NCBI GenBank assembly: GCA_007128275.1
Contig: SKXR01000038.1
Location: forward strand, 1 to 39,064
DNA length: 39,064 bases
Direction of reading: 5' to 3'
DNA from: Kiritimatiellia bacterium
GTDB lineage: Bacteria > Verrucomicrobiota > Kiritimatiellia > SLAD01
Shown here: positions 1 to 24,809 of the stretch, piece after piece
Layout of the letters: the number at the start of each line of letters is the position of its first letter
How positions within the stretch are numbered: the stretch's first letter is position 1
Made by a program: the position numbers and the translations under genes
The notes under the pieces: model-generated
What the model was told of the DNA's origin: nothing
Database searches by the model: none
What the model saw: the letters and a program-made list of their open reading frames with translations, nothing else

Positions 1-1349
1 GGCAACCGGCTCGCCGAAAAGCCGCAAGGAACGGACAATCCGCAGATGCCCGCGAGATTGGCCGTGACGGTGTATACATCGCCCAGATACATTTGTATCG
101 GATCGTCTACTTTTTCGCCCAGCCGATAGGCGGTTGTCGGCGCCACCGGAGTCAAGAGCGCGTCACACTGTTTGAAGGCCGCTTCATAATCTCGGCGAAT
201 CAGGGTGCGCACCTTTTGCGCGCGCAAATAGTACGCGTCGTAATAGCCGCTGCTCAACACATAGGTACCGAGCAGAATACGCCGTTTCACTTCCGCTCCC
301 AAATGGGCGGCGCGCGTTTTCCCGTACATATCGAGCGGATCTTTCCCCTGCTCGCGCGCCCCATAGCGCACGCCGTCAAACCGGGCCAGGTTGGCGGAGG
401 CTTCCGCCGTGGCGATAATGTAGTATGTGGCGACGGCGTATTCCGTGTGCGGCAGGCTGATCTCGACGATTTCCGCACCCAACGACGCACAGTCCGCGAC
501 GGCCTTTCGCACGATCTGCTCCACTTCGGGCGCCATCCCTTCCGCGAAATATTCTTTCGGTAAGCCGAGTCGCATTCCGCTCAGATCGCCACGCAGCGAC
601 CCCGCGTAATCCGGAACCGGCGTGTTCATCGAGGTTGAATCCATGCGGTCACGCCCCGCCATCGAGGTCAACAAGAGCGCGGCGTCGCGTACGGTGCGGG
701 CAAGGGGCCCGACCTGATCCAGCGACGAAGCAAACGCGGTAAGTCCGTACCGGGAAACACGCCCGTAGGACGGCTTAAGGCCCACGCAACCACAGAAGGA
801 GGCGGGCTGGCGGATGGATCCGCCCGTGTCCGTACCGAGCGCGGCCAGCGCCGATCCGGCCGCCACCGCCGCGGCTGATCCGCCACTGGATCCGCCGGGA
901 ACGTATTCGCTGTTCCAGGGGTTACGCGCAGGACCGAAAGCGGAATTCTCATTGGTCGAGCCCATGGCAAACTCGTCCATGTTCGTTCGACCGAGAAACA
1001 CCGCCCCCCGCTCCCGCAAACGGGCAATGGCCGAAGCGTCATAGGGGGATTGATAGCCGTCCAGAATACGTGAAGCACAATGGCATGCCTGTCCCTTGAC
1101 ATGGAGCACATCCTTCACGGCAATGGGGAGTCCGTGCAAGGGCCCCGTTGCGCCCCCGGCCCGGGCGGCATCCGCGGCGCGCGCCTGTTTCAAGGCGTCT
1201 TCCGGATCGACCGAGAGATAGGCATTGAGTTGGTCATGGGTCGAATCGATACGCGACAAGACATCGCGTACGATATCTTCGGACGAGCAATCGCCTCGCG
1301 ATAGCAGTTGACCGAGTTCGACCAGCGATTTTCGGGCGAGTTCCGTCAT
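1..1349 (-). CDS. gatA: Glutamyl-tRNA(Gln) amidotransferase subunit A. The C-terminus runs off the left edge of the window.
   Basis: ATG at 1347-1349, 9 nt downstream of the gatC stop. The frame is open to position 1, which is why it is missing from the ORF track. My translation begins [16 protein letters not shown] and contains the amidase signature [13 protein letters not shown]...[17 protein letters not shown]. Confidence 0.9.
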
Positions 1350-1357
1350 GCCGCCCT

Positions 1358-1657
1358 CTACTCCAGAATCCGGGGTACGATAAAGAGGCCGCTCCGCGAT
1401 GAGGGTGCGTTGTCCATTACCGCTTGATGGTCCAGACTCGGCGTGACGGTATCTTCTCGAAATACGTTATGGACGGGCACCGCATGGGCGGTCGGCTCCA
1501 CGCCCTCCACGTCGAGTGCGCTCAGGGTGCGCACGTGTTCGAGCACATGCTCCAATTGTTCCTGAAAAACGAGTGCCTCCTCGTCCGACAGGTGCATGCG
1601 CGCCAGATGCGCCACGTACTTCACATCCATGGAATCGGTGTTGGTCTTTTCGGTCAT
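1358..1657 (-). CDS. gatC: Asp/Glu-tRNA amidotransferase subunit C
   Basis: 99-aa ORF ([42 protein letters not shown]...) with typical GatC length and sequence, directly upstream of gatA. Confidence 0.9.
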
Positions 1658-1697
1658 TACAATCCGTTCGCGTTACCTGAGTTGATGGATCACGCGA

Positions 1698-1726
1698 AGT
1701 ATAGGACCGTGCCGGAACAGGATCAA
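1698..1726 (-). promoter_or_regulatory. Putative sigma70-type promoter for gatC-gatA
   Basis: The minus strand reads TTGATC, a 17-nt spacer, then TATACT. The -10 lies about 40 nt upstream of the gatC ATG. Motif match only. Confidence 0.3.
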
Positions 1727-1751
1727 GCTTTTGGAAGGGAGTACGGCCGGA

Positions 1752-3239
1752 TCAGATGATCTGGATGATCACCTCATCCTCGGGCTCCTCTTCGACGGGC
1801 GCCTCCTCCACGACGGCGAAAGTCGGCAGAATACGATAATACACTTGCAGCGTCAGCGCCGCCATGGCGGTGCTGAAGGCCGGTCCAAAACGCGTTTCCA
1901 CGCCGAATGGGATGTTCGATCCTTCGCGGGCGGGCGAAGTCCAGCTCCCGTCTTGGTTCTGATTGCGCACGAAGGCGGGTGCAAAGCGGTTGTTCCAGTC
2001 TTCCCATACCGAGCGACCCTGCTGGAACTTCACCTGAGTCACGTAATACCACCGGCTCATGGCCCATTGCGAGGGACGGTCCCAATTCACCTCCGCCGCC
2101 CGCAACACATCCATTCCGCGCCGGGCCTCCGACCGATTCCCCATGCCGTACAATTGAAATGTCAACACCGCCGCCGCCGTCAGACCATGATCCGGGCGAC
2201 GGGCGGACTGAACGCCTTCGACGCCCCGGTAGAAGAATTCACCGTCATCGGCTTGCCGGTTGAGGAGCATTTCCAGGGCTTCTTGCACGACCCTGTTCAA
2301 GTCGGGATTCGGCGCGCCGGCGAGTTCCGCCGCCTTGAGGGCCTGCAATTGCCATACGGAAACGGAGGTGTTGATCGGCTCGTTTGAAATGTTGTCATAG
2401 CCATAGCCCCACATGGCCCTGGCGTTCCGCCCCTTCAGAATGACCTCGACCCCCCGTTCCATGGGATCCCGCAACTGAGGAATCCGCGTCAGCGCATAGG
2501 CTTCCGCGATGGCATACGTTGCAATGGCGTGGCAATAGGCCCCTTCGGGCTTGATCGAGGGGTCCAGAAACTCGCCCCGGTCATTCTGGTTATCGACCAA
2601 GTACCGGATGGCGCGATGCACGGTCCGTCCATACTCTTTGGAAGCCGGCGTTTCACCATGAGCCAGAAACGCCAGCAAGCCCAAACCGGTTACCCCCGTG
2701 CGATGATTGCGATCACGCGGACCCGTCTGCGTTCGCCATGAACCATCTTCTTCTTGGTTTTCCTTCAACCAACGCAAGGCTCGTATCACCGCCGCCTCGG
2801 TGGCCTCCCCCCAACGCCCGCCATAGCGATTCAAGAGAGCCGAGCGGCCGGCCTCGTTCCTGCCGGCAAACAGGCCCTGCATCGTGAGCGGGCTGTCCAC
2901 CTGCATGACATCCAACGCCGCAAAATCAATCTCGGGTTGGTCTTGCGCAAAATCCTGCGGATCGGGCGGAACATCCACATCCACGTCCATATCCGGCATG
3001 TCAAAATCCAGATCAAACTCCAAGGGCTCGAATTCCGGCTCGATTTCATCGAAGAGATCGTCCAGATCCACTTCCTGGATGTCCATGATCATGGCTTCAA
3101 TTTCGGGCGTGCTCTCCCGGGTATCGAACACGATGAAATGCACCGCGGCGTAGAGAATGAATATATGAAGGAGCACCGACCCGGTGGGCCCGATCAAGTG
3201 TTCCATCACCTTCTTCTTCAAAAATTCTTTTCTAGTCAC
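1752..3239 (-). CDS. TonB-like membrane-anchored protein with a C-terminal squalene-cyclase/prenyltransferase-type alpha/alpha-toroid repeat domain (paralogue B, GTG start)
   Basis: 495-aa ORF. N-terminus: KKK, then a TM helix GSVLLHIFILYAAVHFIVF with S21-x3-H25. Then an acidic/Pro linker (EVDLDDLFDEIEPEFEPLEFDLDFDMPDMDVDVDVPPDP). Then repeated DGSW/DGEF motifs (QEEDGSW, QNDRGEF, QADDGEFF, QNQDGSWTSP) typical of prenyltransferase/SHC repeats. Last gene of the exbB-exbD-exbD operon. The start codon is GTG (3237-3239). Confidence 0.8.
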   Translation of the reverse strand: MTRKEFLKKKVMEHLIGPTGSVLLHIFILYAAVHFIVFDTRESTPEIEAMIMDIQEVDLDDLFDEIEPEFEPLEFDLDFDMPDMDVDVDVPPDPQDFAQDQPEIDFAALDVMQVDSPLTMQGLFAGRNEAGRSALLNRYGGRWGEATEAAVIRALRWLKENQEEDGSWRTQTGPRDRNHRTGVTGLGLLAFLAHGETPASKEYGRTVHRAIRYLVDNQNDRGEFLDPSIKPEGAYCHAIATYAIAEAYALTRIPQLRDPMERGVEVILKGRNARAMWGYGYDNISNEPINTSVSVWQLQALKAAELAGAPNPDLNRVVQEALEMLLNRQADDGEFFYRGVEGVQSARRPDHGLTAAAVLTFQLYGMGNRSEARRGMDVLRAAEVNWDRPSQWAMSRWYYVTQVKFQQGRSVWEDWNNRFAPAFVRNQNQDGSWTSPAREGSNIPFGVETRFGPAFSTAMAALTLQVYYRILPTFAVVEEAPVEEEPEDEVIIQII

Positions 3240-3264
3240 GGGGCTGTGCTTTTCCTTGTCTTCC

Positions 3265-3392
3265 GTTCAGACGTACCACGTACATTCTCCCTCATGTGAC
3301 TTTCGCGCATAAATCCAGGATTTCAACTGTTCTCGTGCCGAGATCGGCGGATGGGGCATGACGGCAAACCGTTGTTCCGGTGATACAGGGAC
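3265..3392 (-). pseudogene. Relic of the 3' end of exbD, left by the tandem duplication (frameshifted and prematurely terminated)
   Basis: 3296-3345 aligns with 5028-5075 of the intact exbD (actttcgcgcataaatccaggatttcaac-tgttctcgtgccg versus actttcgcacataaatccaagatctcaatcaggttctcgtgccg). It encodes ..SRHEN, then a 2-nt deletion, then ..VEILDLCAKV followed by an early stop. The intact protein reads SRHENLIEILDLCAKVGLKNLSVVSMN. Boundaries are approximate. Confidence 0.65.
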
Positions 3393-3426
3393 GTGACCGA
3401 TGGAGCGGTCTCGGTTTCTCGGCCAT
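3393..3426 (-). pseudogene. Relic of the gatC 5' end (start codon plus about 11 codons) fused to the exbD relic at the duplication junction
   Basis: The minus strand reads atggccgagaaaccgagaccgctccatcgg, versus the real gatC atgaccgaaaagaccaacaccgattccatgg. The spacer upstream (3427-3523) is also homologous to the spacer upstream of the real gatC (1658-1751). Confidence 0.55.
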
Positions 3427-3523
3427 TACCATCTCTTCGCGATACCCGGGTCGATGGATCGCGCGGAGTATCGTGTTGGCGGTGCTGGACAGGATCACGC
3501 TTTCGGAAAGGCGCGTGACCGGA

Positions 3524-4969
3524 TCAGATGATCTGGATGATCACCTCGTCTTCGTCGTCTTCTTCCTCGGCGGGTTCTTCGACTACGGCGAAGGTGGGAA
3601 GAATCCGGTAGTAGACTTGTAGCGAAAGGGCGGCGAGCGTGGTGGCATACACCGGACCGTAATTGACTTCGCGGTGCGCCGTGCCTCGGGGCAATTGACC
3701 ACTGGGCGAGGTCCAGCTCCCATCGGAATTCTGGTTCCGCACAAAGGCCGGCGCAAACGAATTATTCCAGGTATCCCACGTTCCACCGCCGGTCTGAAAT
3801 TTTGCTTGCGTGGCATAATACCACGTATACATCGCGCCGGCCGGGGCGTCATTCCAATTGACGCGCATATCACGAATCGCCGCCACGCCGTTGCGCACCT
3901 CGGTTGCACGCGGATTCCCGGCCAGTTGGAAGAGCAGACAGGACAGCGCCGTCATACTGTCATTCCGGGATTGCATGGAGGAATAGCCGAAGTGGTGGGT
4001 TTCCGGATTGTAGACCGTTAGGATGTCCTCCAAGGACTTATTCATGGCCTGTTGCAGGCCTCGCGCTCCGCTCCCGGCCAGCTGGGCGGCTTTCATGCCT
4101 TGAATATTGAATCCGGAAATGGATGTGTCGCGGCGCGAACCCTGGGCATAGTCATAGTCCCATCCGCCGCCCGGTTGCTGACCGTCAATGATGACCTGGA
4201 TGCTCTTATCCATGACATCCCGCAAATTCGGAATCCGGGTCATGGCGTACGCTTCGGCAATAGCATACGCGGCGATTGCTTGGGCATAGACCGGCGCATT
4301 ACCCGATCCCACGCCCTTGAAACGCCCGTCGTCTTCCATGTCGTTCACGAGAAAGCGGATGGCGCGGCGCACCGTGTTTCCGTAGCGTTCCGAGGAGCCT
4401 GTTTCCCCGTGCGCCAAATAGGTCAACAACCCCAAGCCCGTCATCGCGGCGGGGGCACGCGAGCCATGATCCCACGAGCCGTCGTCATTTTGGTTGATGC
4501 GCAACCATTCCAGCGCGCGGCGTACCGCGGCTTCCGTCTCTGCGCTGCCGCCGAAGCGCCTCAACATGGCGGCACGGCCGCCCTCACTGCGCCCTGAAAA
4601 CAAGCCCTGCATGGTGAGCGGACTGTCCACCTGCATGACATCCAGTGCCGCAAAATCCACATCGGGTTGGTCTTGCGCAAAATCCTGAGGATCGGGCGGA
4701 ACATCCACATCCACGTCCATATCCGGCATCTCGAAATCCAGATCAAACTCCAACGGCTCGAATTCCGGCTCCAAGTCATCCAGAATATCATCCAGATCCA
4801 CTTCCTGCATGTCCATGATCATGGCTTCAATTTCGGGCGTGCTCTCCCGGGTATCGAACACGATGAAATGCACGGCGGCGTAAAGAATGAATATATGAAG
4901 AAGCACCGACCCGGTGGGCCCGATCAAGTGTTCCATCACCTTCTTCTTCAAAAATTCTTTTCTAGTCAT
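3524..4969 (-). CDS. TonB-like membrane-anchored protein with a C-terminal squalene-cyclase/prenyltransferase-type alpha/alpha-toroid repeat domain (paralogue A)
   Basis: 481-aa ORF. The first 53 aa are identical to paralogue B, including the S-x3-H helix. It has the same acidic linker. The toroid repeats are diverged (NQNDDGSW, MEDDGRF, QQPGGGWDYDY, NQNSDGSWTSP). The C-terminal tail is the same (DEVIIQII). G-rich RBS (GGGGAGGGGGG) upstream of the ATG at 4969. Confidence 0.85.
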   Translation of the reverse strand: MTRKEFLKKKVMEHLIGPTGSVLLHIFILYAAVHFIVFDTRESTPEIEAMIMDMQEVDLDDILDDLEPEFEPLEFDLDFEMPDMDVDVDVPPDPQDFAQDQPDVDFAALDVMQVDSPLTMQGLFSGRSEGGRAAMLRRFGGSAETEAAVRRALEWLRINQNDDGSWDHGSRAPAAMTGLGLLTYLAHGETGSSERYGNTVRRAIRFLVNDMEDDGRFKGVGSGNAPVYAQAIAAYAIAEAYAMTRIPNLRDVMDKSIQVIIDGQQPGGGWDYDYAQGSRRDTSISGFNIQGMKAAQLAGSGARGLQQAMNKSLEDILTVYNPETHHFGYSSMQSRNDSMTALSCLLFQLAGNPRATEVRNGVAAIRDMRVNWNDAPAGAMYTWYYATQAKFQTGGGTWDTWNNSFAPAFVRNQNSDGSWTSPSGQLPRGTAHREVNYGPVYATTLAALSLQVYYRILPTFAVVEEPAEEEDDEDEVIIQII

Positions 4970-4991
4970 GGGGCCGCCCCCCTCCCCGTCG

Positions 4992-5408
4992 TCAGTTCAT
5001 ACTTACGACGGAAAGGTTCTTTAATCCTACTTTCGCACATAAATCCAAGATCTCAATCAGGTTCTCGTGCCGGGAATGAGCCGTAGCCATGATCAAGACC
5101 GTTTGATTCGGGTCGAGCGCGGCCAAGCGCCCCAGCGTGCGCTCAATGGCGGGCAAGCGCATCTGGCGGTCATTGACGGTATAGCCGTCCTCATAAATGA
5201 CCACCTGCAGGACGTTGGGCGTTTCCATCTGCTCTTTCGGCTCGGCGTCCGGCGCCGGGCGGAATACGTCCAGATGGGCCATCACATCCTGAATCTCAAA
5301 GGTTAGAATGAAGTAGATGAGCAGCTGGAAGACGATGTCGATCATGGGCGTCATCGACAGTTCGGCTTCGATCATCCCCTGTCTTCGTCTTTTGCGCTTG
5401 TGCGCCAT
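4992..5408 (-). CDS. exbD: Biopolymer transport protein ExbD/TolR family (second copy)
   Basis: 138 aa. A basic N-terminus is followed by MTPMIDIVFQLLIYFILTF, the hallmark ExbD/TolR TM segment with its conserved Asp. Confidence 0.9.
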   Translation of the reverse strand: MAHKRKRRRQGMIEAELSMTPMIDIVFQLLIYFILTFEIQDVMAHLDVFRPAPDAEPKEQMETPNVLQVVIYEDGYTVNDRQMRLPAIERTLGRLAALDPNQTVLIMATAHSRHENLIEILDLCAKVGLKNLSVVSMN

Positions 5409-5441
5409 GCCGCGTTCTCCTCGTTAATACAGGATCGGTTG

Positions 5442-5870
5442 CTAGTTGGCTTCCTTGATGGCCGCAAAGCTCACCCGGTACAAGCCGGCGCGCGTACAAA
5501 TATCCATCGCGCGCTGGATGTTCGTGTGCCGCACATCCATATCGCCCCGGATCACCACCGGCGTCGACTGCCCGTATTCGGCCACCGTCCGGCGCATAAT
5601 GGCAAACATTTGCTCCGGCGAAACGGGCACGCGACCAATGGAAAGGTGCCCGCGATCGTTGACGTCGATCGTCACCGTTCGCGGATCCCTGGTCTCCACC
5701 GCGGGACCGTGCGGCGACATCGCAAGCCGAATCCGTTCGTCCAACGCGTCGCGTTCCATTTCCACCGTAAGCACGAAGAAGATGATCATCTGGAATACGA
5801 TATCGATCATCGGCGTCATGTTGATGCCGCCGCCTTCGGCCACCCGTGATCTTTGTCTATTCTTGGCCAT
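5442..5870 (-). CDS. exbD: Biopolymer transport protein ExbD/TolR family (first copy)
   Basis: 142 aa containing INMTPMIDIVFQMIIFFVLTV, directly downstream of exbB. Confidence 0.9.
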   Translation of the reverse strand: MAKNRQRSRVAEGGGINMTPMIDIVFQMIIFFVLTVEMERDALDERIRLAMSPHGPAVETRDPRTVTIDVNDRGHLSIGRVPVSPEQMFAIMRRTVAEYGQSTPVVIRGDMDVRHTNIQRAMDICTRAGLYRVSFAAIKEAN

Positions 5871-5917
5871 AAGATCCTATTCGGCTGCTTGAACGGTTAC
5901 TTCAGCCCGATGTTTTC

Positions 5918-6730
5918 CTATTCATCCACCACTTCCACATTGCGGAACACCTTGATCAGATCCATCGTGGTGCCTTCCATGCCGAGGATGATCTTGGTGG
6001 CGGTATTGCGGAAATAGTAGAAGAACGCCACGGCGGGCACGGCGACAGCCAGTCCGGCGGCGGTCGTGAAGAGCGCCTGCGAAATGTTCAACGCCAAGGC
6101 GGCCTGCTTGGCGGCGCCTTCGGCCGCCGTACCCAAGGTGGCAAAGGCGAAGATCATGCCTTGCACCGTACCCAGCAGCCCGAGCATCGGCGCCAGGTTG
6201 CCGACGACGTTGAGGTAATTGACGCGCTGCAGTAACTGCTCGCCTTCCAAGTCGGCGGCGACGGCAACGGCGTCCTGAATCGCTTCAAACCCTTCTTCGA
6301 CGTTGGTGAAGCCGGCGGACAGGATATTGGACAGCGGCACGGGATTCTCTTCGCAATGCTTGAGGGCTTTCATGACGTCGCCCTGTTCCATGGCCGTGCG
6401 CACTTCGGAAACCAGGCTCTCCGGCGCAATCTTGGACGCCCGGATCGTAACAAACGAATCCACAATCAACGCGATGCCTGCGACGGACGCCGCAAAGATG
6501 GTCAACCAGAGGATGATGCCCAGAAGGCCGGCGCCCGTGACGATTTGGAAGAATCCGGGACCGGGAACCGCGACCTCATCCACATCGGCGGCCAGCTCCA
6601 TGCCTGGAGCGACCTGTTGTCCGGCGGGCGCCGGCGCAGGAGCCTCCTCCTGTGCAACCGTTGTCTGAACGGTCGCTACTCCGATGAAGAGGGCCATCAA
6701 CAACATCAAGCCAAATATCCGATTCCGCAT
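5918..6730 (-). CDS. exbB: MotA/TolQ/ExbB proton-channel family protein with a signal peptide and an N-terminal periplasmic extension
   Basis: 270 aa. The C-terminal half, NLAPMLGLLGTVQGMIFAF...ALFTTAAGLAVAVPAVAFFYYF, is the MotA_ExbB channel core. AAGGAG RBS upstream of the ATG at 6730. Confidence 0.9.
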   Translation of the reverse strand: MRNRIFGLMLLMALFIGVATVQTTVAQEEAPAPAPAGQQVAPGMELAADVDEVAVPGPGFFQIVTGAGLLGIILWLTIFAASVAGIALIVDSFVTIRASKIAPESLVSEVRTAMEQGDVMKALKHCEENPVPLSNILSAGFTNVEEGFEAIQDAVAVAADLEGEQLLQRVNYLNVVGNLAPMLGLLGTVQGMIFAFATLGTAAEGAAKQAALALNISQALFTTAAGLAVAVPAVAFFYYFRNTATKIILGMEGTTMDLIKVFRNVEVVDE

Positions 6731-6826
6731 GGTATGTCTCCTTCCGAACGAATTCTTCTTTATTACTAACGATCCAGTTTACTCGAAACCCACGGCTATG
6801 GGAATAAATAAATGACGCCCATGGCG

Positions 6827-7630
6827 TTACAATTTACCGCGCGCCTGTTGCGCATAGGGACTGTTGCCGTACTGCTCCACCACTTTCCGGTACATGTCGC
6901 GCGCCCGTTGGTCCCGCATTTCCTCCAAGGTCTGGGCCGCCTTGAACGTCGCTTCCGGCTGCACGGCGGTTACCGCTTTGAAGAGCACCACCGTGCGCAA
7001 ATAATCCAGCAACCCCGCTTCCGCCATCCCGCGTTGGCGTTTCAGGTCGCCTCGCATGATCTGCGCGCGAGCCGCTTCGGATCGTTCTCCATCGGAGATA
7101 ATGTCGTTGAGATAGTTCTCAAGGCGATCGAGTTGCTCGGCGCCCAAAAGGGCCTCGAAGTACCCCCACCGCATGTTCGGATCCTCACGGCGGTGCGGGG
7201 CGTTCTGGAAAAGCCGCTCGAACGAGCTCAGCGCGGCGGCGTGGTCCCCTTTGGCGTTATTGGCCTGACCGATCATCGCCAGTGCTTCCAGGTCCCAGCC
7301 CAGATGCCGGTATCGTGTGAGCACGCCTTCCAAGGTTGAGATCACCTGATCATAGCGCCGCGCCTGCAGATGTTGACGGGCCTGGTCAAGCTCGGCCGGC
7401 CGGTCCGCCCATGCTTCCCGGTATTGGCCGCGCGCGAAGGTGAGATCACCGCGTTCCGTCGTGAGGATCACATCGCCGTTGGCGCGGGCGCGGATGGCGG
7501 TTCCATCAATACGCCGTCCGTCGGTCAAAATCACATGCGCCGCATCGGACAGGACCGGCCACGCCATCAGGACCGTCATGATCAGGCATAGCCATTGTAT
7601 TCTGCTGCTTGTTGTGTTTCTTGTTTTCAT
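6827..7630 (-). CDS. Secreted TPR-like helical-repeat protein
   Basis: I place the start at the internal ATG 7628-7630 (MKTRNTTSSRIQWLCLIMTVLMAWPVLSDA, a signal peptide). The track ORF extended to 7741 would overlap the upstream gene. The helical-repeat content looks TPR-like. Confidence 0.7.
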   Translation of the reverse strand: MKTRNTTSSRIQWLCLIMTVLMAWPVLSDAAHVILTDGRRIDGTAIRARANGDVILTTERGDLTFARGQYREAWADRPAELDQARQHLQARRYDQVISTLEGVLTRYRHLGWDLEALAMIGQANNAKGDHAAALSSFERLFQNAPHRREDPNMRWGYFEALLGAEQLDRLENYLNDIISDGERSEAARAQIMRGDLKRQRGMAEAGLLDYLRTVVLFKAVTAVQPEATFKAAQTLEEMRDQRARDMYRKVVEQYGNSPYAQQARGKL

Positions 7631-7664
7631 GGGCGCACCTTCTTCGTTGCTTATCCGTATGGTT

Positions 7665-10454
7665 TTATTGAATCGCTCTGCGACGCGCGTCGGCCCGAAT
7701 GCGCCGCACATCCTCCACGTGATCGCTCCCCGGGAAATCACTCAAGAATTGGATACTCACATCTTCCACGTCTTGATACAGTTCCAGTTCCATCATCAAG
7801 TCTAGGCTTTCCACAAGACTGCGTTCGATGATCGGTCGTAACCGCCTGTTTTCGGGATCCTGCAACAACGCAATGCGCTGGAACGTGGCGAGCGCCTCCT
7901 GCCGGTTGCCCTGCAGCCGCTGGATCTCGCCCAACTTGAACTGCGCCCGCTGATTGACAATGTTGTCCTGCGAAAGCCGGAGAATATCGTTGAGCGCGGT
8001 GAGGGCCGGGTTGTACTGCTCCAATTCCCTGTGCGAATCGGCCAACAGAAAGCGCGCCTCGTAAAAGAACGACGTGTTCGGGAAGCGTTCCAACAGGTCG
8101 TTCAAGGCCGAAACGGCTTCCGCATGATTCCCTTGATGGTTATAGGCATAGCCCAGGCCATGCAGCGCGAGTTCCAGCATCTGGCGCTGTTCCGTGGTTT
8201 CGAGCACGCGGCGATACGCCGGGATGACATCTTCGTAGAGCCCATTGTCGAGCATCAGTTGCCCAATGCGCGTGAATTCCTCCGGGGAATAGGCGTCCGG
8301 CGTGGCGATCATGCGACGGAACGCATCGCGCGCGATTTCCGTTTCGCCGATCTCGAACGCGGAGCTAACCAGCGCGAACAGCGCACTGCGTCCTTCTTCG
8401 GAATCCGGATACTCCCGCGCCAGTTGTTCAAACGTGGCGGCGGCCTCCGAGGATTGGCCCAGCGCCAATTGGATCGCGCCCTTGTCCCGCATGGCGGGCG
8501 GGGCCAGAGACGATTCCGGATGGCGGCGCAGGAAATGGTCATACGCCGCAATGCCCCGTTGACGATAGGTCTCGACCTGCTCCTCCGGCTCGCGGATACG
8601 TCCGTAACAATACCCCACGAAGAAGAGCGATCGTTCCAACAACCCCGCGTTCCGTTCCGCATCTTCGGGACGCGCATTGTCCGGAGGATTATCCACGCTC
8701 AACCACCGCACGATCTGCCCGTACGACTGGATGGCCTCGGCGTACTTCTGCTGTTTCTGCTGGGTATCGGCCAGCAGGAATTGGCCGCGAATCCGGTCAT
8801 GACCGGGACGGGACGCTTCTACGTACCGGCGGAACAACGACTCCGCCTCTTCGAAATCCTTGCTCTGATAGGCGCTATGCGCCATGGCAAAGAGGGCACG
8901 CAGGAAAAAACGGTCGCGCGGATAATTTTCGACAATCCGCTGATAATAGTGCGCAGCCGCCTCCCGCTCGCCTGCGGCTTCGCTACGACGCGCCATATCG
9001 AAGAGCAACGCCGGCGCACGTTCATGATTCGGGAAGCCATCGAAATAGTCACCGAAGATGGCATTGTACATCTCCTCGTTTTCCTGCTCGACGTACATGC
9101 GTCCGGCGATCAACAGGGCGTTGGCGGCCACGTTGTTGTTGGGGAAGCGCTCGGAAAGGTACGAGGACATCATCAAGACATGAAGTTCATCTTCGAGGTG
9201 GGCATAACTCAGCAGCAGGTTGGCGAGGGCGCGGATGGATGGATCGCCTTCGGGGAAAGCGTTGAGAATGCGCAGATACTCTTCAATCGCCTGCTTGTAG
9301 TCACGCTGACGGAACAGATCGTCCGCATGCGTGTACTGCGCCTGGGCGGCGCCCGTCATGTGTTCGCCAAAGTCGATATTCACGCTGCGGCCGTATTCAT
9401 TCTCCAGCATATTGACCAATTCCCGGCCACGCATGCCGGCTTCGGCGCCCCATTCGCTGGTGCCGTACTTTCCGAATACGTTATAATATTCGGTTAAGGC
9501 CCGTTGAATCGCTCCCAGGATTTCCCGTTCCGGAGCGTTTTGCCCGCGAAGTTCGCGGACCTGCTTTTCATACAGTTCGCCCAGCAAGAAACGCGCGCCG
9601 GCCACGGGACTCATCGCCGAGGGGAAGTTTTGTTTCCGCAGCAAATCGTCGATCTTATTCAGGTCGGACATATACCGCTGCAACAATTCGCGGGCGCCGG
9701 CATCGTTGCCCCGTACCATTTCGACATGGGCCATGACACTAATGGATTGGCCGAACCAGAGGTCATAGCCCCCCCACTGAATTTCTTCGCACAACTCAAA
9801 GGATTGTTTCAGGTAGTTTTCGCGTTCCTCGCCGCTCTTTTCGCGGCCCAACTGCAGGAAAAGTCGTGCCAGATCCATTTGGAGTCGACGCTCGGCATTC
9901 GGATCGTCCAAGCCGGCGTTGAGGAGTCTGCGATACGCTTGAGCGGCGCCTTCCCGGTCGCGCATCCGTTCGAGCATTTGCCCATATTGATAGGCGGCGT
10001 CCTGATAAAAGCGGAGCAGATCGGGATCGGTGGGGGTGCGATCCTTATACCGCTCAAAAAAGGCGTCATAGATCGCTCGCGCCTGATCCGTCTCACCGAT
10101 GCGGAAATAGCCCTGGGCGATGCGTAATTGGAGGGCGTGACGCTGGGGGTGATCGTCCGGCATGGTCTTGGCCAATTCCTCGGCCTCGGCGAATCGACGC
10201 TGGGCGATAAGAATTTCGCCTTGAATCCGGGTGGCGCGATCTCGCTGGTCGGGATGAAGGCGCAACACGGCGTCCACCACGCGGTTGGCGAGATCAGAAA
10301 ATCCCAACTCGATCAGGCCGGAGGCAAACTCGAATTCCCGATCCACATCCATGGACGCTTTCGCCGGAGTCGCGACGAAAGGAGACAGGATCAACATGGT
10401 CACGGCCACGGCAACGCGGATGGAATCTTTCACATTCAGCACCTTTCCCGTCAT
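7665..10454 (-). CDS. Large secreted tetratricopeptide-repeat protein (929 aa), first gene of the ExbBD cluster
   Basis: Signal peptide (VAVAVTMLILSPFVATPAKA). After it come many 34-aa-type repeats with the A..Y/F......A...F/Y periodicity throughout. Confidence 0.8.
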   Translation of the reverse strand: MTGKVLNVKDSIRVAVAVTMLILSPFVATPAKASMDVDREFEFASGLIELGFSDLANRVVDAVLRLHPDQRDRATRIQGEILIAQRRFAEAEELAKTMPDDHPQRHALQLRIAQGYFRIGETDQARAIYDAFFERYKDRTPTDPDLLRFYQDAAYQYGQMLERMRDREGAAQAYRRLLNAGLDDPNAERRLQMDLARLFLQLGREKSGEERENYLKQSFELCEEIQWGGYDLWFGQSISVMAHVEMVRGNDAGARELLQRYMSDLNKIDDLLRKQNFPSAMSPVAGARFLLGELYEKQVRELRGQNAPEREILGAIQRALTEYYNVFGKYGTSEWGAEAGMRGRELVNMLENEYGRSVNIDFGEHMTGAAQAQYTHADDLFRQRDYKQAIEEYLRILNAFPEGDPSIRALANLLLSYAHLEDELHVLMMSSYLSERFPNNNVAANALLIAGRMYVEQENEEMYNAIFGDYFDGFPNHERAPALLFDMARRSEAAGEREAAAHYYQRIVENYPRDRFFLRALFAMAHSAYQSKDFEEAESLFRRYVEASRPGHDRIRGQFLLADTQQKQQKYAEAIQSYGQIVRWLSVDNPPDNARPEDAERNAGLLERSLFFVGYCYGRIREPEEQVETYRQRGIAAYDHFLRRHPESSLAPPAMRDKGAIQLALGQSSEAAATFEQLAREYPDSEEGRSALFALVSSAFEIGETEIARDAFRRMIATPDAYSPEEFTRIGQLMLDNGLYEDVIPAYRRVLETTEQRQMLELALHGLGYAYNHQGNHAEAVSALNDLLERFPNTSFFYEARFLLADSHRELEQYNPALTALNDILRLSQDNIVNQRAQFKLGEIQRLQGNRQEALATFQRIALLQDPENRRLRPIIERSLVESLDLMMELELYQDVEDVSIQFLSDFPGSDHVEDVRRIRADARRRAIQ

Positions 10455-10559
10455 ATCATCCCACTAAAAGGCGGTCACTGGTTCAATCGTGAAACAGTCC
10501 GCCAACATGCTCCATAGCGTGAAGGAGCGTAATTGATAACCCCAGGATCGTCAAGTGCC

Positions 10560-10591
10560 GACGCGCACGACGCGGGGACGCGCACGACGCG
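10560..10591. repeat. Direct repeat gacgcgcacgacgcg x2, separated by gg
   Basis: Copies at 10560-10574 and 10577-10591, in the spacer between the coiled-coil gene and the TPR operon. Confidence 0.9.
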
Positions 10592-10621
10592 CGACGAACC
10601 CGAGAGCCACCACGCCTTCTC

Positions 10622-10915
10622 TTAGTGCTTCCTGAATTTCGCCCCGGCTTCCTTGAAACCCAGCTTGAGCGATTCCCATGAGGCGTTCAGCCCGGCCTTG
10701 AGCGAAGCCCACGCCTCGTCACCGGCAGCGCCGAATTCCTTCAGTTGGTCGCGGGCTTCCGCCATCTGCGTTTCCAACGCATCAATCTGTTCTTGCATCC
10801 CGTGTTGAGCGTCCGCGCTCGCCCCTTTGGCTTGCGCTTTCAACTTATCGAGTTCCGCGTGCCATTCATCCAGCTGCGCCTGCAGTTTCTGTTGATATAA
10901 TTTTCTGTCACTCAT
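10622..10915 (-). CDS. Small coiled-coil protein (97 aa), function unknown
   Basis: The ATG at 10913-10915 overlaps the TGA of the upstream FAD oxidoreductase (ATGA). Sequence MSDRKLYQQKLQAQLDEWHAELDKLKAQAKG...: heptad-rich, with no TM segment. Confidence 0.65.
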   Translation of the reverse strand: MSDRKLYQQKLQAQLDEWHAELDKLKAQAKGASADAQHGMQEQIDALETQMAEARDQLKEFGAAGDEAWASLKAGLNASWESLKLGFKEAGAKFRKH

Positions 10916-12336
10916 GTGCTTTCTCCTTCTGTCGTGTCGGATTGATACGCGGCAACACATTTCTCATAGAGATCAGGGAAGGCGCCTTCCGGATCGTAGC
11001 GCGATTTGAGTCGCCCATAGGCATCACGATTGTAGTGCGACCAGAATTCCGTCTCCGTGAAGAACGAAGTGGAGTAGAGCGACTTCTTGCCGCCCAGCCG
11101 GGCTACTTCTTTTTCCACAAGCCGGTTGTAATGGCCCGGCGGATGACCACTCCGTACGCCGCCCCAGAAACCAAAGTTGATATACAATACATCCGGATCG
11201 GTTTGATACAAGGGATAGACATTCTCCGTGCGGAACGCCTGAGCGGGACAGATCCATACCGGCCGTATACCAATTCGCTCGTTCAGAAATTCCAAAAACC
11301 GGGGCGCGTGCTCCACCGGGATCTCCACATCCTGAATCACCCACTCTACGGATGGCATGAGTCCAATCCGTTGCAGCAGACGCCCGCGTTCGTTCCAGTC
11401 GCGCAGCTTCCAGTACGTCGTGGAATTCAGCAAGCCCATCGAACCCGCCAGAAAACGCAATACGGGGTTCTCCATTCCAAAAGCGCGGGAGCACCAAAAC
11501 CAATCGGTATCCCAGCGCCAAATGTAATCGCGGGTCGTGAGGACATCCCCGTCTTTCCGCCGGATCGAATGATAATACACCTTCATGAAGGTATACCGGC
11601 TTACCGCTTCCGCGTGATCGATGAAATGCCCCTCGGTCCGATACAGCTCATGGTTCCCAAAGGCCGTACCGTCCATGAACGCGGCCCCGTCCGCGCGGTT
11701 ACGATGCTTCCGACAGGCCTCCGCCAAATCATGGAAATAGGAGTCGGGATCGGCGGCCTTCGCATGCGTAAGCCGCACATAGGAACGCACCGGCACGAGC
11801 CGTATCCATAGCCGAAGCGCATAGCCCAGCGTCCCGTACGAATTGGGGAACCCATAGAAAAGATCGCGCTGCTCATTATCCGGACGCGCCAACACCGTAC
11901 GCCCCTCCCCCGTCAACACCTCGACCGCTTGCAGAGTCTCGTGCACAAACCCGTACCGGAACGACGAAGACTCGATGCCCCCGCCGGTGACGGCGCCGCC
12001 AACCGTGATGGATTTCAGTTGGGGCACCACGGCCGGCATCAAGCCGTGCGGCAACGTCGCATCCACCAGCGTCTCGTACGGGGTCATGCCTTCCACTTCG
12101 GCCACCCGGTTCTCCGGGTCCACCGCGATGACATGGTTGAAATCAGTGACGTCGAGACGTTCGGCGCGGGTGGGCGCCGGCCGTACCCGAAACAGATTCG
12201 ATGTGCGCTTGCCGAGGCGCGGCGTGCGTCCGCGTTGCCGGGCCTCCGCGAACTGCTTGATCAGCCGGTCCCGGCGCATCGCAAAAGACCGGCGCCGGGA
12301 TTCGGATGCAATCCCGCTGTTATCGTACCGGCGCAT
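10912..12336 (-). CDS. PCMH-type FAD-binding oxidoreductase, BfaA/DHCR24-like
   Basis: Contains KRTSNLFRVR...VIAVDPENRVAEVEGMTPYETLVDATLPHGLMPAVVPQLKSITVGGAVTGGGIESSSFRYG (FAD_binding_4-like) and the C-terminal YGRLKSRYDPEGAFPDLYEKC. I place the start at ATG 12334-12336, overlapping the last 17 nt of the methyltransferase gene. The ATG at 12279 is an alternative. The track ORF start at 12492 lies inside the upstream gene. Confidence 0.75.
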   Translation of the reverse strand: MRRYDNSGIASESRRRSFAMRRDRLIKQFAEARQRGRTPRLGKRTSNLFRVRPAPTRAERLDVTDFNHVIAVDPENRVAEVEGMTPYETLVDATLPHGLMPAVVPQLKSITVGGAVTGGGIESSSFRYGFVHETLQAVEVLTGEGRTVLARPDNEQRDLFYGFPNSYGTLGYALRLWIRLVPVRSYVRLTHAKAADPDSYFHDLAEACRKHRNRADGAAFMDGTAFGNHELYRTEGHFIDHAEAVSRYTFMKVYYHSIRRKDGDVLTTRDYIWRWDTDWFWCSRAFGMENPVLRFLAGSMGLLNSTTYWKLRDWNERGRLLQRIGLMPSVEWVIQDVEIPVEHAPRFLEFLNERIGIRPVWICPAQAFRTENVYPLYQTDPDVLYINFGFWGGVRSGHPPGHYNRLVEKEVARLGGKKSLYSTSFFTETEFWSHYNRDAYGRLKSRYDPEGAFPDLYEKCVAAYQSDTTEGEST

Positions 12337-15258: not shown

Positions 15259-15287
15259 TTGACCGCGTCCCTGCCCGCTCCTATTGT
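15259..15287 (+). promoter_or_regulatory. Putative sigma70-type promoter abutting the bamD-like ATG (possible leaderless mRNA)
   Basis: TTGACC (15259-15264), a 17-nt spacer, TATTGT (15282-15287), then the ATG at 15296. No Shine-Dalgarno sequence in between. Confidence 0.3.
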
Positions 15288-15295
15288 ACTCGGCC

Positions 15296-16288
15296 ATGAC
15301 TATTCGGCCATTTATTCGAAGCGCGCTCTTCTGTGGCGGCCTGGCCCTGTTCTTCTTGCTCCCGGTCGCGACCGAGGCTTCGCGTCCATTTCACGAGGAA
15401 GAACGCGAGCCCCGTCGGTTCCGTCTCTTACGCCCCAAAATGGATGAACCCGCCGCCCAATTGCAGTATGCCGACGCGTTGCAGGAACGCGGGCGTATGC
15501 GCCGCGCCCAACGCCAGTACCGCGCGCTGGTCCGTTATTGGCCCAACACGCAGGAAGCCGCTCAAGCCCAATACGCGTATGCCCGCCTCCTCGAAGAGCG
15601 CGGTAAACTTTCCCGCGCGTTCGATCAGTACGAAACCTTGATGGAAAACTACACGGGCATGTTTCCGCACGCGCACGTGCTGGAACGATTCTTCGAGATG
15701 GGCGAGACCATCATGGATCGGCGACGCGCCCGCTTCCTGATCTTCCCCGGATTTCATGCGCCGGAACGGGCCATCCCGTACTTCGAGGCCGTGGTCGATT
15801 ACGGTCCGCAATGGGCACGAGCGCCCGAGGCGCAACTGAACATTGCCCGGATCAAGGAACAGATCGACAGACTCGAAGAGGCCGTCTTCGCGTATGACCG
15901 CGTTGAATTCCGTTATCCGCGCAGTCCGCTCGTGGAGGAAGCGTCTTTTGGGAAAGCCCGCACGCTCTATGAGCTTTCCCGCGAAGCCCCCAACCACGTG
16001 GACGGCGCGGAAACGGCGCTGCACGCGTTGGGCTCGTTTGTGCGTAATTATCCGGATTCCGAACATGTCGAGGAAGCGCGCGAGTATATGCGAACCTTGT
16101 ACCGGGAACTCGCCCGACTTGCCTATCAGAAGGCGCGCTATTACGATCGCATCGCGCGTCGCCCGCAGGCCGCTGTAACCACGTATGAGCGTTTTCTGGA
16201 GGAATTTCCGGATACCGAATGGTCCGACACGGTCAGAAAGCGCTTGGAAACATTGCGGGAAAAGTTGGGAGATCAAGATGAGGGTTAA
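15296..16288 (+). CDS. BamD-like (YfiO-family) TPR protein, putative outer-membrane assembly factor
   Basis: The ATG at 15296 gives MTIRPFIRSALFCGGLALFFLLPVATEA, a signal sequence. The track start at 15284 is a TTG. TPR pairs with the Y..A......G....A periodicity throughout (QYADALQERGRMRRAQRQYRALVRYWPNTQEAAQAQYAYARLLEERGK). The family call is by resemblance only. Confidence 0.5.
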   Translation: MTIRPFIRSALFCGGLALFFLLPVATEASRPFHEEEREPRRFRLLRPKMDEPAAQLQYADALQERGRMRRAQRQYRALVRYWPNTQEAAQAQYAYARLLEERGKLSRAFDQYETLMENYTGMFPHAHVLERFFEMGETIMDRRRARFLIFPGFHAPERAIPYFEAVVDYGPQWARAPEAQLNIARIKEQIDRLEEAVFAYDRVEFRYPRSPLVEEASFGKARTLYELSREAPNHVDGAETALHALGSFVRNYPDSEHVEEAREYMRTLYRELARLAYQKARYYDRIARRPQAAVTTYERFLEEFPDTEWSDTVRKRLETLREKLGDQDEG

Positions 16289-16811
16289 CCGGGCCTCGTT
16301 GATGAAGGGCGTCCTGGCAAGCGGGCTGGGCCTGATCGCCGTATACGGGTTGCCCGGTTGTGTCGGGTATCAGTTGGGCTCCATGCTGCCACCCGACATT
16401 CAGACCGTCTATGTGCCCACGTTCATCAATGAAACCGAGGAGCCCCTCTTGGAAATCGAAACCACGCGGGCCGCCATCAGCGAGATTCAACGGGACGGCT
16501 CGTTGCGGATTGCTTCCGCCGACGAGGCCGACGCCCTGTTGACCGTGCGCCTTACGGGGTTCCGCCTGCAACCCCTCGCCTACGACAGGGACCGCCGCGC
16601 CGCCGCCGAGGAATACCGCATGTTCATCACCGCCTCGATCGTCCTGACCCGGCAATCCACGCAGGAAGTGATTGCGCGCAGCCCGCGCGTGACCGGAGAG
16701 GCCACGTTTTTCCTGTTGGGCGACATGACCAGCTCCAAGCAGGCCGCCCTGCCTGCCGCATCCCGGGACTTGGCCCACCTGATCATCAGCCAGATCGTCG
16801 AAGCCTGGTAA
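16278..16811 (+). CDS. lptE: LptE-like LPS-assembly lipoprotein
   Basis: The ATG at 16278 overlaps the end of the bamD-like gene by 11 nt. Lipobox LPGC is followed by VGYQLG, the C-G-Y/F-H/Q-L pattern of LptE. Length is about 177 aa. Confidence 0.55.
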   Translation: MRVNRASLMKGVLASGLGLIAVYGLPGCVGYQLGSMLPPDIQTVYVPTFINETEEPLLEIETTRAAISEIQRDGSLRIASADEADALLTVRLTGFRLQPLAYDRDRRAAAEEYRMFITASIVLTRQSTQEVIARSPRVTGEATFFLLGDMTSSKQAALPAASRDLAHLIISQIVEAW

Positions 16812-17345: not shown

Positions 17346-18620
17346 ATGCACAACGAACCGACACAGGGAGAGGCCCAACCGGTCTTTTGGGCCGACATGA
17401 TGGCCCGATGGCGAACCCTTCCGGCCCGGACCCGATGGCGCGTCGCACGCCGGGCCGGGGCCCATTTGCACGCGCTCTGGCGGAACAAGGTCGATATCGC
17501 CCGTTTGCCGTTGGAATTGACACGTTTTCATTGGTCCGGCCTGGAACCGCGATGGGTGGTCACCGAAGACAGTATCCGGCGTACCCGCTTCGTGCAAAGC
17601 CACGACCGGATCTGCCGGACATTGATCCGATGGCACCGGACCACAGGCCATGCGCTGACCCGCAAAGAGGCCGCGCTGTTTCTGGGCGGTTTCTTGAAAC
17701 AGGAGAAACTGGAAAAGCCGACCGTCCGTCAGCTTGCGAGGGAATTGGACGCGGACGGCGTGCAGCATCTGGCTTTGCGGCCGGGGAAGGAATACGCACG
17801 CGCCCTTCGCATGGAATCTGATTCCGCCGGGGGCCCGTATCGCGGGTATTGGGCCTCCGACCCCGGTTTGCCGGCCGCCTTGCTCGCCGCGGAAACCAAC
17901 CGTGCGGAACGGACCATGCCCCATCGTCCTCTCAAACAAGGACCGCGCATCACGGTCTTTCGCGCCGCGCTATATGGCAAGGACACCCTCGTTAAACGCT
18001 ACGACATCAACTCGTGGCCGGACCGGTTGCGGTATCTCCTGCGCACCAGCCGAGGGAGACGCGCCTGGGCGGTCGGCGAGACGTTTCGGATGCTGCAGAT
18101 TCCCACGCCGCGCCCCTTGGGTTATCTGGAGGTGCGCAAGCGCGGCCTGCCCTTGCGCAGTTATGTGTTCACGGAGTTCGAACGCGAATCGGATACCGCG
18201 CGCCGCTGGATCTGCCGACACTGGAGAAGGTCCGACGACACCGTAAAACGCGCTTTTCGCGCCGCGTTGCAGGACATGCTAAACACGCTGTATCGCGCCA
18301 ACATCTACCATGCGGACACCAAACTGGCCAACCTCATGGCGCGACCGGCGGACGGTTCCGCCGTACCGGACCTGATGTGGATCGATCTGGAATGCGTCCG
18401 GTTCGGCGTGCGCGCCACCGAACATCGCATGATCCGAAACCTCGTACAGATGAACGGATCCGTGCGCAACGCATGGATGACGGAAACCGAACGGCTCGTG
18501 TTTCTGCGCGAAATGGCCGAGACGTATCCGTTCCTTATGGATCCGCGAAACATCGACAAGATGCGGCGCTGGACCGTGGCCCGTTGGCACAAGGAGTTAC
18601 GCACACGATGCGGCCCCTGA
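17346..18620 (+). CDS. Two-part protein: an Arg/Trp-rich N-terminal region of unknown function plus a C-terminal lipopolysaccharide-kinase (Kdo/WaaP/InaA) family domain
   Basis: C-terminal half: LVKRYDINSWPDRLRYLLRTSRGRRAWAVGETFRMLQIPTPRPLGYLEVRKRG...SYVFTEF...NIYHADTKLANLMA...LMWIDLECVRF. This has the layout of the Kdo/WaaP kinase family, with an HxD..N catalytic loop and an IDxE metal site. The start is uncertain; the first 200 aa match no family I recognise. Confidence 0.6.
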   Translation: MHNEPTQGEAQPVFWADMMARWRTLPARTRWRVARRAGAHLHALWRNKVDIARLPLELTRFHWSGLEPRWVVTEDSIRRTRFVQSHDRICRTLIRWHRTTGHALTRKEAALFLGGFLKQEKLEKPTVRQLARELDADGVQHLALRPGKEYARALRMESDSAGGPYRGYWASDPGLPAALLAAETNRAERTMPHRPLKQGPRITVFRAALYGKDTLVKRYDINSWPDRLRYLLRTSRGRRAWAVGETFRMLQIPTPRPLGYLEVRKRGLPLRSYVFTEFERESDTARRWICRHWRRSDDTVKRAFRAALQDMLNTLYRANIYHADTKLANLMARPADGSAVPDLMWIDLECVRFGVRATEHRMIRNLVQMNGSVRNAWMTETERLVFLREMAETYPFLMDPRNIDKMRRWTVARWHKELRTRCGP

Positions 18621-24662: not shown

Positions 24663-24809
24663 CCCGCCCTCCAAACACGCTCGCGGCTCAAGCCGGCAAT
24701 CTGTTCCTTGCGGCGCCCTGCCGGGTAGCGGGCCGCCGGACGGTTGGATGAATCAATCGCACTCATAAGTACACACTCGCCCCCGACCCCGCTCCCGAAG
24801 GCGTCCGGA

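Follow-up and report, generated by a model that had tools for sequence, protein, structure and literature searches.

A motor operon with toroid proteins in the TonB position

The stretch of DNA analysed here, called the window, comprises 39,064 nucleotides (39 kb, ~59% GC) of core bacterial chromosome from a Kiritimatiellia bacterium (contig SKXR01000038.1). Between positions 1752 and 10454, its minus strand carries seven co-directional open reading frames (ORFs) that encode, in order, a long and a short tetratricopeptide repeat (TPR) protein, an ExbB, two ExbD, and two alpha/alpha-toroid proteins, termed toroid A and toroid B. An initial annotation, made from the sequence of the window, had placed an ExbB-ExbD-ExbD motor operon of this gene order here, with no TonB C-terminal domain in the cluster and with the slot of tonB or tolA held by toroid proteins on a TonB-like anchor. 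All seven ORFs are present, and the Pfam families expected of them (MotA_ExbB, ExbD twice, TPR and SQHop_cyclase_C) were found. No operon protein matches TonB_C or TolA at E <= 0.01 in Pfam or NCBIfam, and the toroid proteins possess the proposed TonB-like anchor and a modelled barrel. Evidence beyond the initial annotation comes from the conserved S-x3-H-x6-L motif of the anchor, a strand resembling the D-box of TonB, a disordered linker and a published parallel operon. The operon may well encode an envelope machine of the Ton/Tol type, driven by the proton-motive force (PMF), whose force transducers bear an (alpha/alpha)6 head.

The genes of the string are separated by 22-96 nt, with the exception of toroid A and toroid B, which lie 284 nt apart. 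In a promoter and terminator scan of positions 1300-11000, counts were not above those of shuffled sequences, and Rfam gave no match within the window. Because these scans gave no signal, the operon boundaries are drawn from synteny and the spacing of the genes. A 112-aa ORF that shortly precedes the long TPR gene (10622-10960, minus strand) shows a weak, below-cutoff match to YlqD and overlaps the start of the ORF of a FAD-binding gene. Since it is kept in only one related locus (L008), it probably lies outside the operon.

Anchor, strand and linker of the toroid proteins

Toroid A (481 aa; 3524-4969, minus strand) is encoded directly after exbD2, and its tandem paralogue toroid B (495 aa, GTG start; 1752-3239, minus strand) follows it. 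Both match PF13243 (SQHop_cyclase_C), at 29.5 and 33.4 bits, respectively, against a cutoff of 26.1, and the assignment of toroid A is further supported by an AlphaFold2 (AF2) model of the monomer and by Foldseek. About 13 residues are predicted to be cytoplasmic, followed by a single helix with the signature [ED]-[HW]-x-x-G-P-x-G-S-x3-H. In toroid A, this putative transmembrane anchor spans residues 15-38 (4856-4927, minus strand) and reads S21-x3-H25-x6-A32, where the family consensus is S-x3-H-x6-L. The anchor histidine (H25) is invariant in the family alignment, which holds 20 toroid homologues down to 45% identity, and in a second alignment, of the anchor region. Over a larger set of 93 toroid ORFs from 79 loci, Ser is kept in 86%, His in 97%, and Leu in 69% (with Ala in a further 26%).

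A conserved E-[IV]-E-V-x-[IVM] strand lies 8-12 residues past the helix throughout the toroid family. Its counterpart in toroid A, PEIEAMIMD at residues 45-53 (4811-4837, minus strand; extended family pattern E-[IV]-E-V-x-[IVM]-x-[EM]), resembles the motor box or D-box of known transducers. The strand is embedded in a linker of 87 residues (39-125; 4595-4855, minus strand) that is predicted to be disordered, as the predicted local distance difference test (pLDDT) of the AF2 model falls below 50 over residues 36-125. The linker is strongly acidic, with 29 Asp/Glu, a single Lys/Arg and 9 Pro, giving a net charge of -28.

The anchor profile was compared with Escherichia coli TolA(1-71) and TonB(1-105), reference sequences that were checked against PDB chains 9k49_H and 9ddo_F; the TonB D-box peptide is chain 8p9r_C. 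Aligned by hhalign to TolA, the Ser and His of the anchor fall on S18 and H22 (P = 7e-4, for a single comparison). Aligned to TonB, they fall on S16 and H20, and the 'eiEV' of the strand falls on the D-box PISVTMV (P = 1.7e-3, again for a single comparison).

The toroid head and the C-terminal strand

The head of toroid A (residues 129-455; 3605-4585, minus strand) is modelled with a pLDDT of ~90 as an all-helical, single (alpha/alpha)6 barrel. With target TM scores of 0.60-0.65, Foldseek relates it to AprG, the single-domain proteins 8pak/8paj that resemble squalene-hopene cyclase (SHC), MstE, drimenyl diphosphate synthase, GH76 mannanases and MmpH. In a profile search of PDB sequences, the nearest match is squalene-hopene cyclase (8e-14), and two QW-like N-Q-x-x-D-G-S-W motifs occur in the barrel, at residues 159 and 412. 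The signatures of the corresponding enzymes are missing. Neither DxDD, DDxxD, CxEQ, a conserved Cys, nor a Cys/His Zn site was found in the barrel, and the only DLDD of toroid A is located in the acidic linker. The toroid proteins score 33-39 bits with TIGR01787, for which the cutoff is 323, and the match of toroid B to the alpha-2-macroglobulin family TED_complement (17.5 bits) is likewise below its cutoff of 22.

Terpene cyclase, prenyltransferase and thioester activities of the barrel were rejected on the absence of these diagnostic motifs. Because all three sets of signatures are missing, the barrel is inferred to be a binding module or a non-terpenoid catalytic one. The handling of isoprenoid or hopanoid lipids, which the initial annotation had listed among possible roles, accordingly finds no support beyond the fold class, as the barrel lacks DxDD and DDxxD, Zn ligands and also the thioester motif.

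An acidic tail leads from the barrel to a conserved strand at the C-terminus (…DEVIIQII-COOH; tail and strand together at 3527-3604, minus strand). The pattern D-D-[VI]-x-[VI]-x-I-[IL] closes 20 of 20 aligned members at the extreme C-terminus and persists in a looser form in distant ones. In the window, this strand (in the form D-[DE]-[VI]-x-[VI]-x-I-[IL]) is encoded by the last eight codons of each toroid gene (3527-3550 and 1755-1778) and comes after acidic residues. The AF2 monomer model shows the tail as disordered. By its sequence, the strand looks like a strand donor of the TonB-box or TolA-box type, or like a C-terminal ligand of the kind bound by TPR or PDZ domains.

Motor subunits and TPR proteins

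The motor genes encode a putative pentameric stator subunit of the ExbB/TolQ type (5918-6730, minus strand; PF01618, MotA_ExbB, 2.6e-24), which bears a signal-peptide-like N-terminal extension, and two paralogues of ExbD/TolR. The best NCBIfam model for the stator subunit is TolQ, below cutoff, and its PDB matches score 46 bits for TolQ and 34 bits for ExbB, placing it closer to TolQ. Aligned to the structures of TolQ and ExbB, it keeps the threonines of the GTVxG and TTAxG motifs. ExbD paralogue 1 (5442-5870, minus strand; PF02472, 7.5e-21) carries its transmembrane Asp in 'PMIDIVF', and the Asp is also present in paralogue 2 (4992-5408, minus strand; PF02472, 3.6e-20), with which paralogue 1 is 29% identical. 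Because the ExbB threonines and the transmembrane Asp of both ExbD helices are kept, the motor looks functional from its sequence.

Both TPR proteins have signal-peptide-like starts, as read from sequence. The long TPR protein (929 aa; 7665-10454, minus strand), identified by its ORF, Pfam and NCBIfam matches and synteny, is predicted to be periplasmic. It is matched by 18 TPR-type Pfam families and, five times, by the NCBIfam TPR module tol_pal_ybgF (162 bits), as well as by the BamD and PorW/SprE models. A weak NCBIfam match to BcsC (9e-4) was recorded, and no beta-barrel part is present. This repeated YbgF module is the exception among the Tol-type models of NCBIfam, since those for TolQ, TolR and YbgF otherwise match the operon below their equivalog cutoffs.

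The short TPR protein (6827-7630, minus strand) combines the signal peptide with a six-strand beta domain and a TPR solenoid. The initial annotation was right about the gene and its signal-peptide-like start and gave its length as 268 aa. The length is 267 aa when counted from the first ATG past the stop of the long TPR gene; the mechanical ORF, which begins at an upstream GTG, would be 304 aa. The protein matches Pfam TPR_6 and, below cutoff, the NCBIfam model tol_pal_ybgF (4e-11). In its AF2 model (pLDDT 91.7), a low-confidence N-terminal helix precedes the folded domain, which consists of strands at residues 31-74 and helices at 79-266, and Foldseek matches it to BamD, MamA and peptide-binding TPRs of the Rap type. 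Its homologues are restricted to this type of operon, and some of them carry the JGI name 'TolA-binding protein'.

Conservation of the operon and the wider toroid family

The initial annotation had proposed a survey of gene neighbourhoods for linkage of toroid homologues to ExbBD and TPR genes, and this linkage proved to be conserved. A single scan of species-representative genomes yielded 79 loci, all from metagenome-assembled genomes (MAGs) and mostly labelled Kiritimatiellae/-ia, Verrucomicrobiota, Lentisphaerae/-ota or PVC group, with a few bearing another label or none. The full string TPR-TPR-ExbB-ExbD-ExbD-toroid is present in 48 of the 54 loci in which 6.2 kb or more of sequence precedes the toroid gene, and in 15 further, shorter loci, an ExbD gene directly precedes the toroid gene. 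In every linked locus, the toroid gene starts 10-60 nt past exbD2, at toroid identities that descend to ~40%. A gene string kept in dozens of genomes down to this level of identity is more than chance. Between one and three toroid genes close the unit. In 36 loci they are followed by mutL, which argues that the operon ends with the toroid gene; flanks are otherwise variable, and the gatC, serA, bamD and lptE genes beside the operon in the window are syntenic only in close relatives.

The toroid family extends far beyond these loci. When 1.84 billion cluster representatives were searched with a family profile, there were 16,586 matches at E <= 1e-3 and 5,154 at E <= 1e-30, counted as clusters at 50% identity. 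The only annotations found in the family are 'terpene cyclase/mutase family protein' and 'prenyltransferase/squalene oxidase repeat-containing protein', names that are probably misleading for the members described here. Orphan toroid paralogues occur in Kiritimatiellia MAGs alongside a copy of the operon. The family also includes large, multi-domain proteins (P0128 at L087:7001-9814, P0154, P0228 and P0249), built either of two tandem toroid barrels (937 aa) or of 1,100-1,900 aa with the toroid at the C-terminal end. Because the barrel recurs in such proteins, it is a reusable periplasmic module beyond its motor-linked form.

Five paralogues are linked to sigma factors (L049:9195-11401, L056:5532-7774, L061:9242-11434, L075:3835-6032 and L079:9148-11407). 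Each combines the G-P-x-G-S-x3-H helix with a cytoplasmic N-terminal extension of ~90 aa that contains an anti-sigma-like 'ELIEKYLDDLL…EL…LE' segment, and each lies no more than 20 nt downstream of a gene for an extracytoplasmic function (ECF) sigma factor, with Sigma70_r2 and r4_2 matches in all five cases. The extension has no Pfam match, and no conserved target genes were found beside the sigma/anti-sigma pairs. A further fusion, of a zf-HC2 anti-sigma domain to a toroid, is encoded at L061:11531-12808 on the minus strand. By analogy with orphan TonB paralogues, the other toroid paralogues with the same anchor, including the anti-sigma fusions, probably use the same motor.

Origin of the second toroid gene

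The spacer that precedes toroid B (3240-3523) preserves traces of its origin. Alignment of the upstream regions identifies a degenerate repeat of the exbD2 3' end at 3261-3343 (minus strand), in which the exbD2 stretch coding for 'RHENLIEILDLCAKV' is repeated with its frame broken. This remnant marks toroid B as the product of a tandem duplication whose unit started inside exbD2. The two toroid genes are 89-97% identical over their first 360 nt, which encode the helix, box and linker (4610-4969 and 2880-3239), and 44-76% identical over the remainder. So abrupt a step in identity points to gene conversion or to a later partial duplication. A second toroid gene is present in ~14 related loci. 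Homogenisation of the N-terminal part as a general rule for paired toroid genes was considered and rejected, as other lineages with two toroid genes do not show it and it is confined to this clade, L001 and L024. In Tichowtungia aerotolerans, both of the von Willebrand factor A (vWA) transducers compared below are near-identical over their first 150 residues (PMC12204202).

Neighbouring genes

Around the operon, the window carries gatC, serA, a cyclopropane-fatty-acid-synthase-like gene, a BamD-like gene, lptE, ftsH, cdaA, tilS and serS. The BamD-like gene, for a TPR lipoprotein (15284-16288, plus strand), and lptE (16185-16811, plus strand) overlap by ~100 nt in the mechanical ORF calls and are followed by a gene for a kinase of the Kdo/WaaP family (17346-18620, plus strand). 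This outer-membrane-biogenesis neighbourhood of the motor operon is kept in the close relatives L002, L006, L008, L010 and L022. Elsewhere in the window, two adjacent, paralogous DUF4139 proteins of unknown function (446 and 503 aa; 23334-24674 and 24810-26321, minus strand) are encoded next to a GT2 glycosyltransferase gene (22490-23185).

Proposed mechanism and alternative readings

In the proposed mechanism, proton flow through an assembly of five ExbB and an ExbD1-ExbD2 heterodimer would be converted into movement. With its Ser/His face, the toroid helix would dock at the rim of the pentamer formed by ExbB, in the way that the helices of TonB and TolA do, and the strand that follows could be caught by the periplasmic domains of ExbD in the manner of the TonB D-box. 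With the acidic linker spanning the periplasm, the toroid head, perhaps together with the C-terminal strand through beta-augmentation, would hold a partner near the wall or the outer membrane, on which the motor could then pull. The two secreted TPR proteins may serve as periplasmic scaffold or partner, taking the place that CpoB/YbgF-like TPRs have in Tol systems. Among physiological outputs, Tol-like envelope maintenance is ranked first, followed by glycan or polymer handling and by sensing.

Several observations weigh against this mechanism. The pairwise hhalign probabilities of the anchor with TonB and TolA are low (15-27%), and the anchor-region profile, searched against all PDB sequences, retrieves neither protein and returns chance hits only (E ~1). 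Because the profile search misses them and the pairwise alignments are weak, the likeness of the toroid anchor to TonB and TolA N-termini is one of motifs and layout and not provable homology. Three of the four SHLS positions of known transducer helices are kept, the fourth being Val, Ile or Leu and not Ser, and the motor-box region forms no strand in the AF2 monomer model. No gene for an outer-membrane partner is present in the operon. All syntenic loci belong to one class-level clade, so that some of the conservation of gene order is inheritance; mutL is likewise kept. In the wider family, about one-third of the 147 best representatives have the strict G-P-x-G-S-x3-H anchor, which is a minimum figure since the strict pattern overlooks variants such as GAGGS-x3-H, and three distant members with readable context (P0200, P0264 and P0128) are not beside ExbBD.

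In an alternative reading, the toroid proteins would be ordinary periplasmic enzymes or binding proteins, such as glycan-active (alpha/alpha)6 proteins, anchored in the inner membrane and merely co-transcribed with a motor whose true TonB or TolA transducer is encoded elsewhere. The barrel is as similar to GH76, MmpH and AprG as to cyclases, its invariant E189, E239, D281, W383-Y385, W398 and W401 could form a catalytic or sugar-binding pocket, and many family members are orphans beside sugar-metabolism or glycosidase genes; tonB itself is often unlinked from exbBD (PMC12204202). A passive anchor, however, would not be expected to maintain a near-invariant His, a Ser four residues before it and a conserved strand after the helix, nor does mere co-transcription sit easily with a toroid gene placed so closely after exbD2 in every linked locus. 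In addition, exactly this slot is filled in a paralogous operon of the same phylum by a different SHLS-anchored protein that is likewise not a TonB, and one representative of the Kiritimatiellota, T. aerotolerans, has no recognisable TonB or TolA (PMC12204202). The co-transcribed-enzyme account is, on this balance, unlikely, if less so than the two accounts that follow.

A more specific proposal, compatible with the motor-driven transducer mechanism and rather improbable, is that the operon supplies the energiser that the Kiritimatiellia Tol-Pal system otherwise lacks. Toroids would take the place of TolA, act at division on the outer membrane or TolB-Pal, and have CpoB-like TPRs as partners. 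The closeness of the stator subunit to TolQ would fit this role, as would the YbgF/CpoB-type repeats of both TPR proteins, the name TolA-binding protein given to some homologues, and a core-chromosome locus near BamD and LptE here and mutL elsewhere. Kiritimatiella glycovorans has tolB-pal but no TolA that could be annotated (PMC12204202); the C-terminal strand, judged from its sequence, resembles the strand-donor boxes of Ton and Tol. Against these stand the absence of tolB and pal from the window, and from the operon and its flanks in every related locus examined, and NCBIfam Tol matches far below their equivalog cutoffs. The TolA head, moreover, accepts a strand from TolB, and nothing indicates that the toroid does likewise; the same role could be assigned equally well to the vWA operon. 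Toroid heads acting as periplasmic sensors, in what is mainly a signalling device, where gene expression is controlled by ligand binding together with motor action and of which the operon copies would be sigma-less relatives of anti-sigma factors, are a far less probable explanation. The five sigma-linked paralogues come from the same MAGs as operon copies, carry the same helix behind their anti-sigma-like extension and directly follow ECF sigma genes, and the zf-HC2 fusion adds another such case. The operon copies, in contrast, have only ~13 cytoplasmic residues and no sigma gene nearby, and the missing Pfam match of the extension and the lack of conserved target genes also count against a sensor.

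Implications

Before 2025, Ton and Tol were the only described routes across the periplasm powered by motors of the ExbBD/TolQR type, and the vWA head was proposed in that year. If the motor-driven reading is true, the toroid would be a third head, in a phylum without recognisable TonB or TolA, and anchor, box and linker would constitute a portable force-delivery module whose heads were swapped in evolution. For the energy supply of TolB-Pal and the outer membrane in Kiritimatiellia, the operon would also offer a specific candidate. The anti-sigma fusions that share its anchor suggest motor-gated gene expression, for which no described precedent was found in the literature searched. The toroid family has more than 5,000 clusters at 50% identity and E <= 1e-30.

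A bolder synthesis can be put forward, tentatively and with the expectation that it will probably not hold as a whole. Kiritimatiellia, apparently without TonB and TolA, would power their envelope with ExbBD-type motors on which non-TonB heads are interchangeable, and the toroid family would comprise such heads on one motor. Three components are joined in it. The operon copies would be the missing TolA-like energiser that maintains the outer membrane or wall. Among the ECF-linked paralogues there would be a novel type of anti-sigma factor, released by force or PMF through a TonB-like helix and fusing TonB-like with FecR-like roles. The C-terminal strand would serve as an inbuilt 'box' and give a beta-strand to the partner, in the reverse polarity of the contact between TonB and the TonB box.

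Comparison with known systems

Compared with TonB and TolA, the toroid operon is alike in placing the transducer gene directly after the motor genes. It differs in having an all-helical barrel instead of TonB_C or TolA domain III, a linker that is acidic and not Pro-Lys/Glu-rich or helical, two different ExbD genes, and no gene for a TonB-dependent transporter, TolB or Pal nearby. The genome paper of K. glycovorans reports no genes for TonB-dependent uptake. With SHC and other class II terpene cyclases and with the beta subunits of prenyltransferases (PF13243, PF13249, PF00432), the head shares the (alpha/alpha)6 barrel and QW-type Q-x-x-D-G-S-W repeats. Unlike those enzymes, it is a single barrel without catalytic or Zn motifs, predicted to be periplasmic on a TonB-like stalk.

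Exopolysaccharide secretion systems pair a periplasmic TPR protein with an (alpha/alpha)n enzyme, as in AlgK/AlgL and BcsC/BcsZ. The toroid operon resembles them in encoding a long periplasmic TPR scaffold together with a periplasmic alpha/alpha-barrel protein, and differs in that it contains no synthase, glycosyltransferase or outer-membrane barrel and that its own barrel appears tethered to a proton motor. A further likeness is to the cluster FSU_2397-FSU_2403 of Fibrobacter succinogenes S85, which is envelope-located and upregulated on cellulose (PMC6851124). By locus-tag order and annotations, from which adjacency is inferred, it also comprises two TPR proteins, a single ExbB, two ExbD and a single transducer, which in this cluster bears a TonB-family annotation.

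The closest counterpart is the operon of vWA-headed, motor-driven force transducers that Williams-Jones et al. (2025, Mol Biol Evol; PMC12204202) published for T. aerotolerans and further bacteria of the PVC group. It encodes a TPR protein, a TolQ-like protein, two heterologous TolR-like proteins and two SHLS-anchored, non-TonB transducers, each built of an SHLS helix, a stator/motor box, a disordered region of ~100 residues and a vWA head, with a function that is unknown; AF3 models dock the transducer helix on the motor through its His (PMC12204202). Neither this study, a 2026 review of Ton and Tol, nor a 2025 survey of MotAB mentions toroid, cyclase or prenyl heads, and no paper was found that links ExbD or TonB with SHC-like, prenyltransferase-repeat or anti-sigma terms. 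The statement of the initial annotation that no functional description of such a module was known therefore stands for the toroid-headed form, which is absent from the literature searched, and does not stand for the kind of system, already proposed in 2025 with a vWA head (PMC12204202).

The Tichowtungia locus (L088) encodes, in order, a TPR protein of 938 aa, a secreted protein of 262 aa, an ExbB of 247 aa, ExbDs of 143 and 146 aa, and vWA proteins of 476 and 474 aa. A third protein with an S-x3-H anchor ('AAAVSIVVHILLILLAGS'; 781 aa, L088:2267-4612) is encoded ahead of the motor genes and flanked by two long TPR genes, so that the locus appears from its sequence to encode three candidate transducers. 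By BLASTP, the proteins of the window match those of L088 position by position: ExbB at 29% identity, ExbD1 with ExbD1 and ExbD2 with ExbD2 at 30% each, and the long TPR protein, collinearly, at 21% over 514 aa. A profile comparison of the 267-aa short TPR protein with the 262-aa protein gave no similarity, and BLASTP of the toroid proteins against the L088 proteins gave no match to the vWA transducers. The two systems are alike in phylum, in layout, in the S-x3-H helix, followed by a box there and a box-like strand here and by a disordered region, in a non-TonB head, and in the almost identical N-terminal part shared by the paired transducers of each operon. They differ in the head, an (alpha/alpha)6 toroid here and a vWA/Rossmann domain there, in the linker, acidic here and basic or Gly-Ser-rich there, and in the conserved C-terminal strand of the toroid family. 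By their common gene order and the position-by-position matches of their motors, the toroid and vWA operons are paralogous chassis with different heads.

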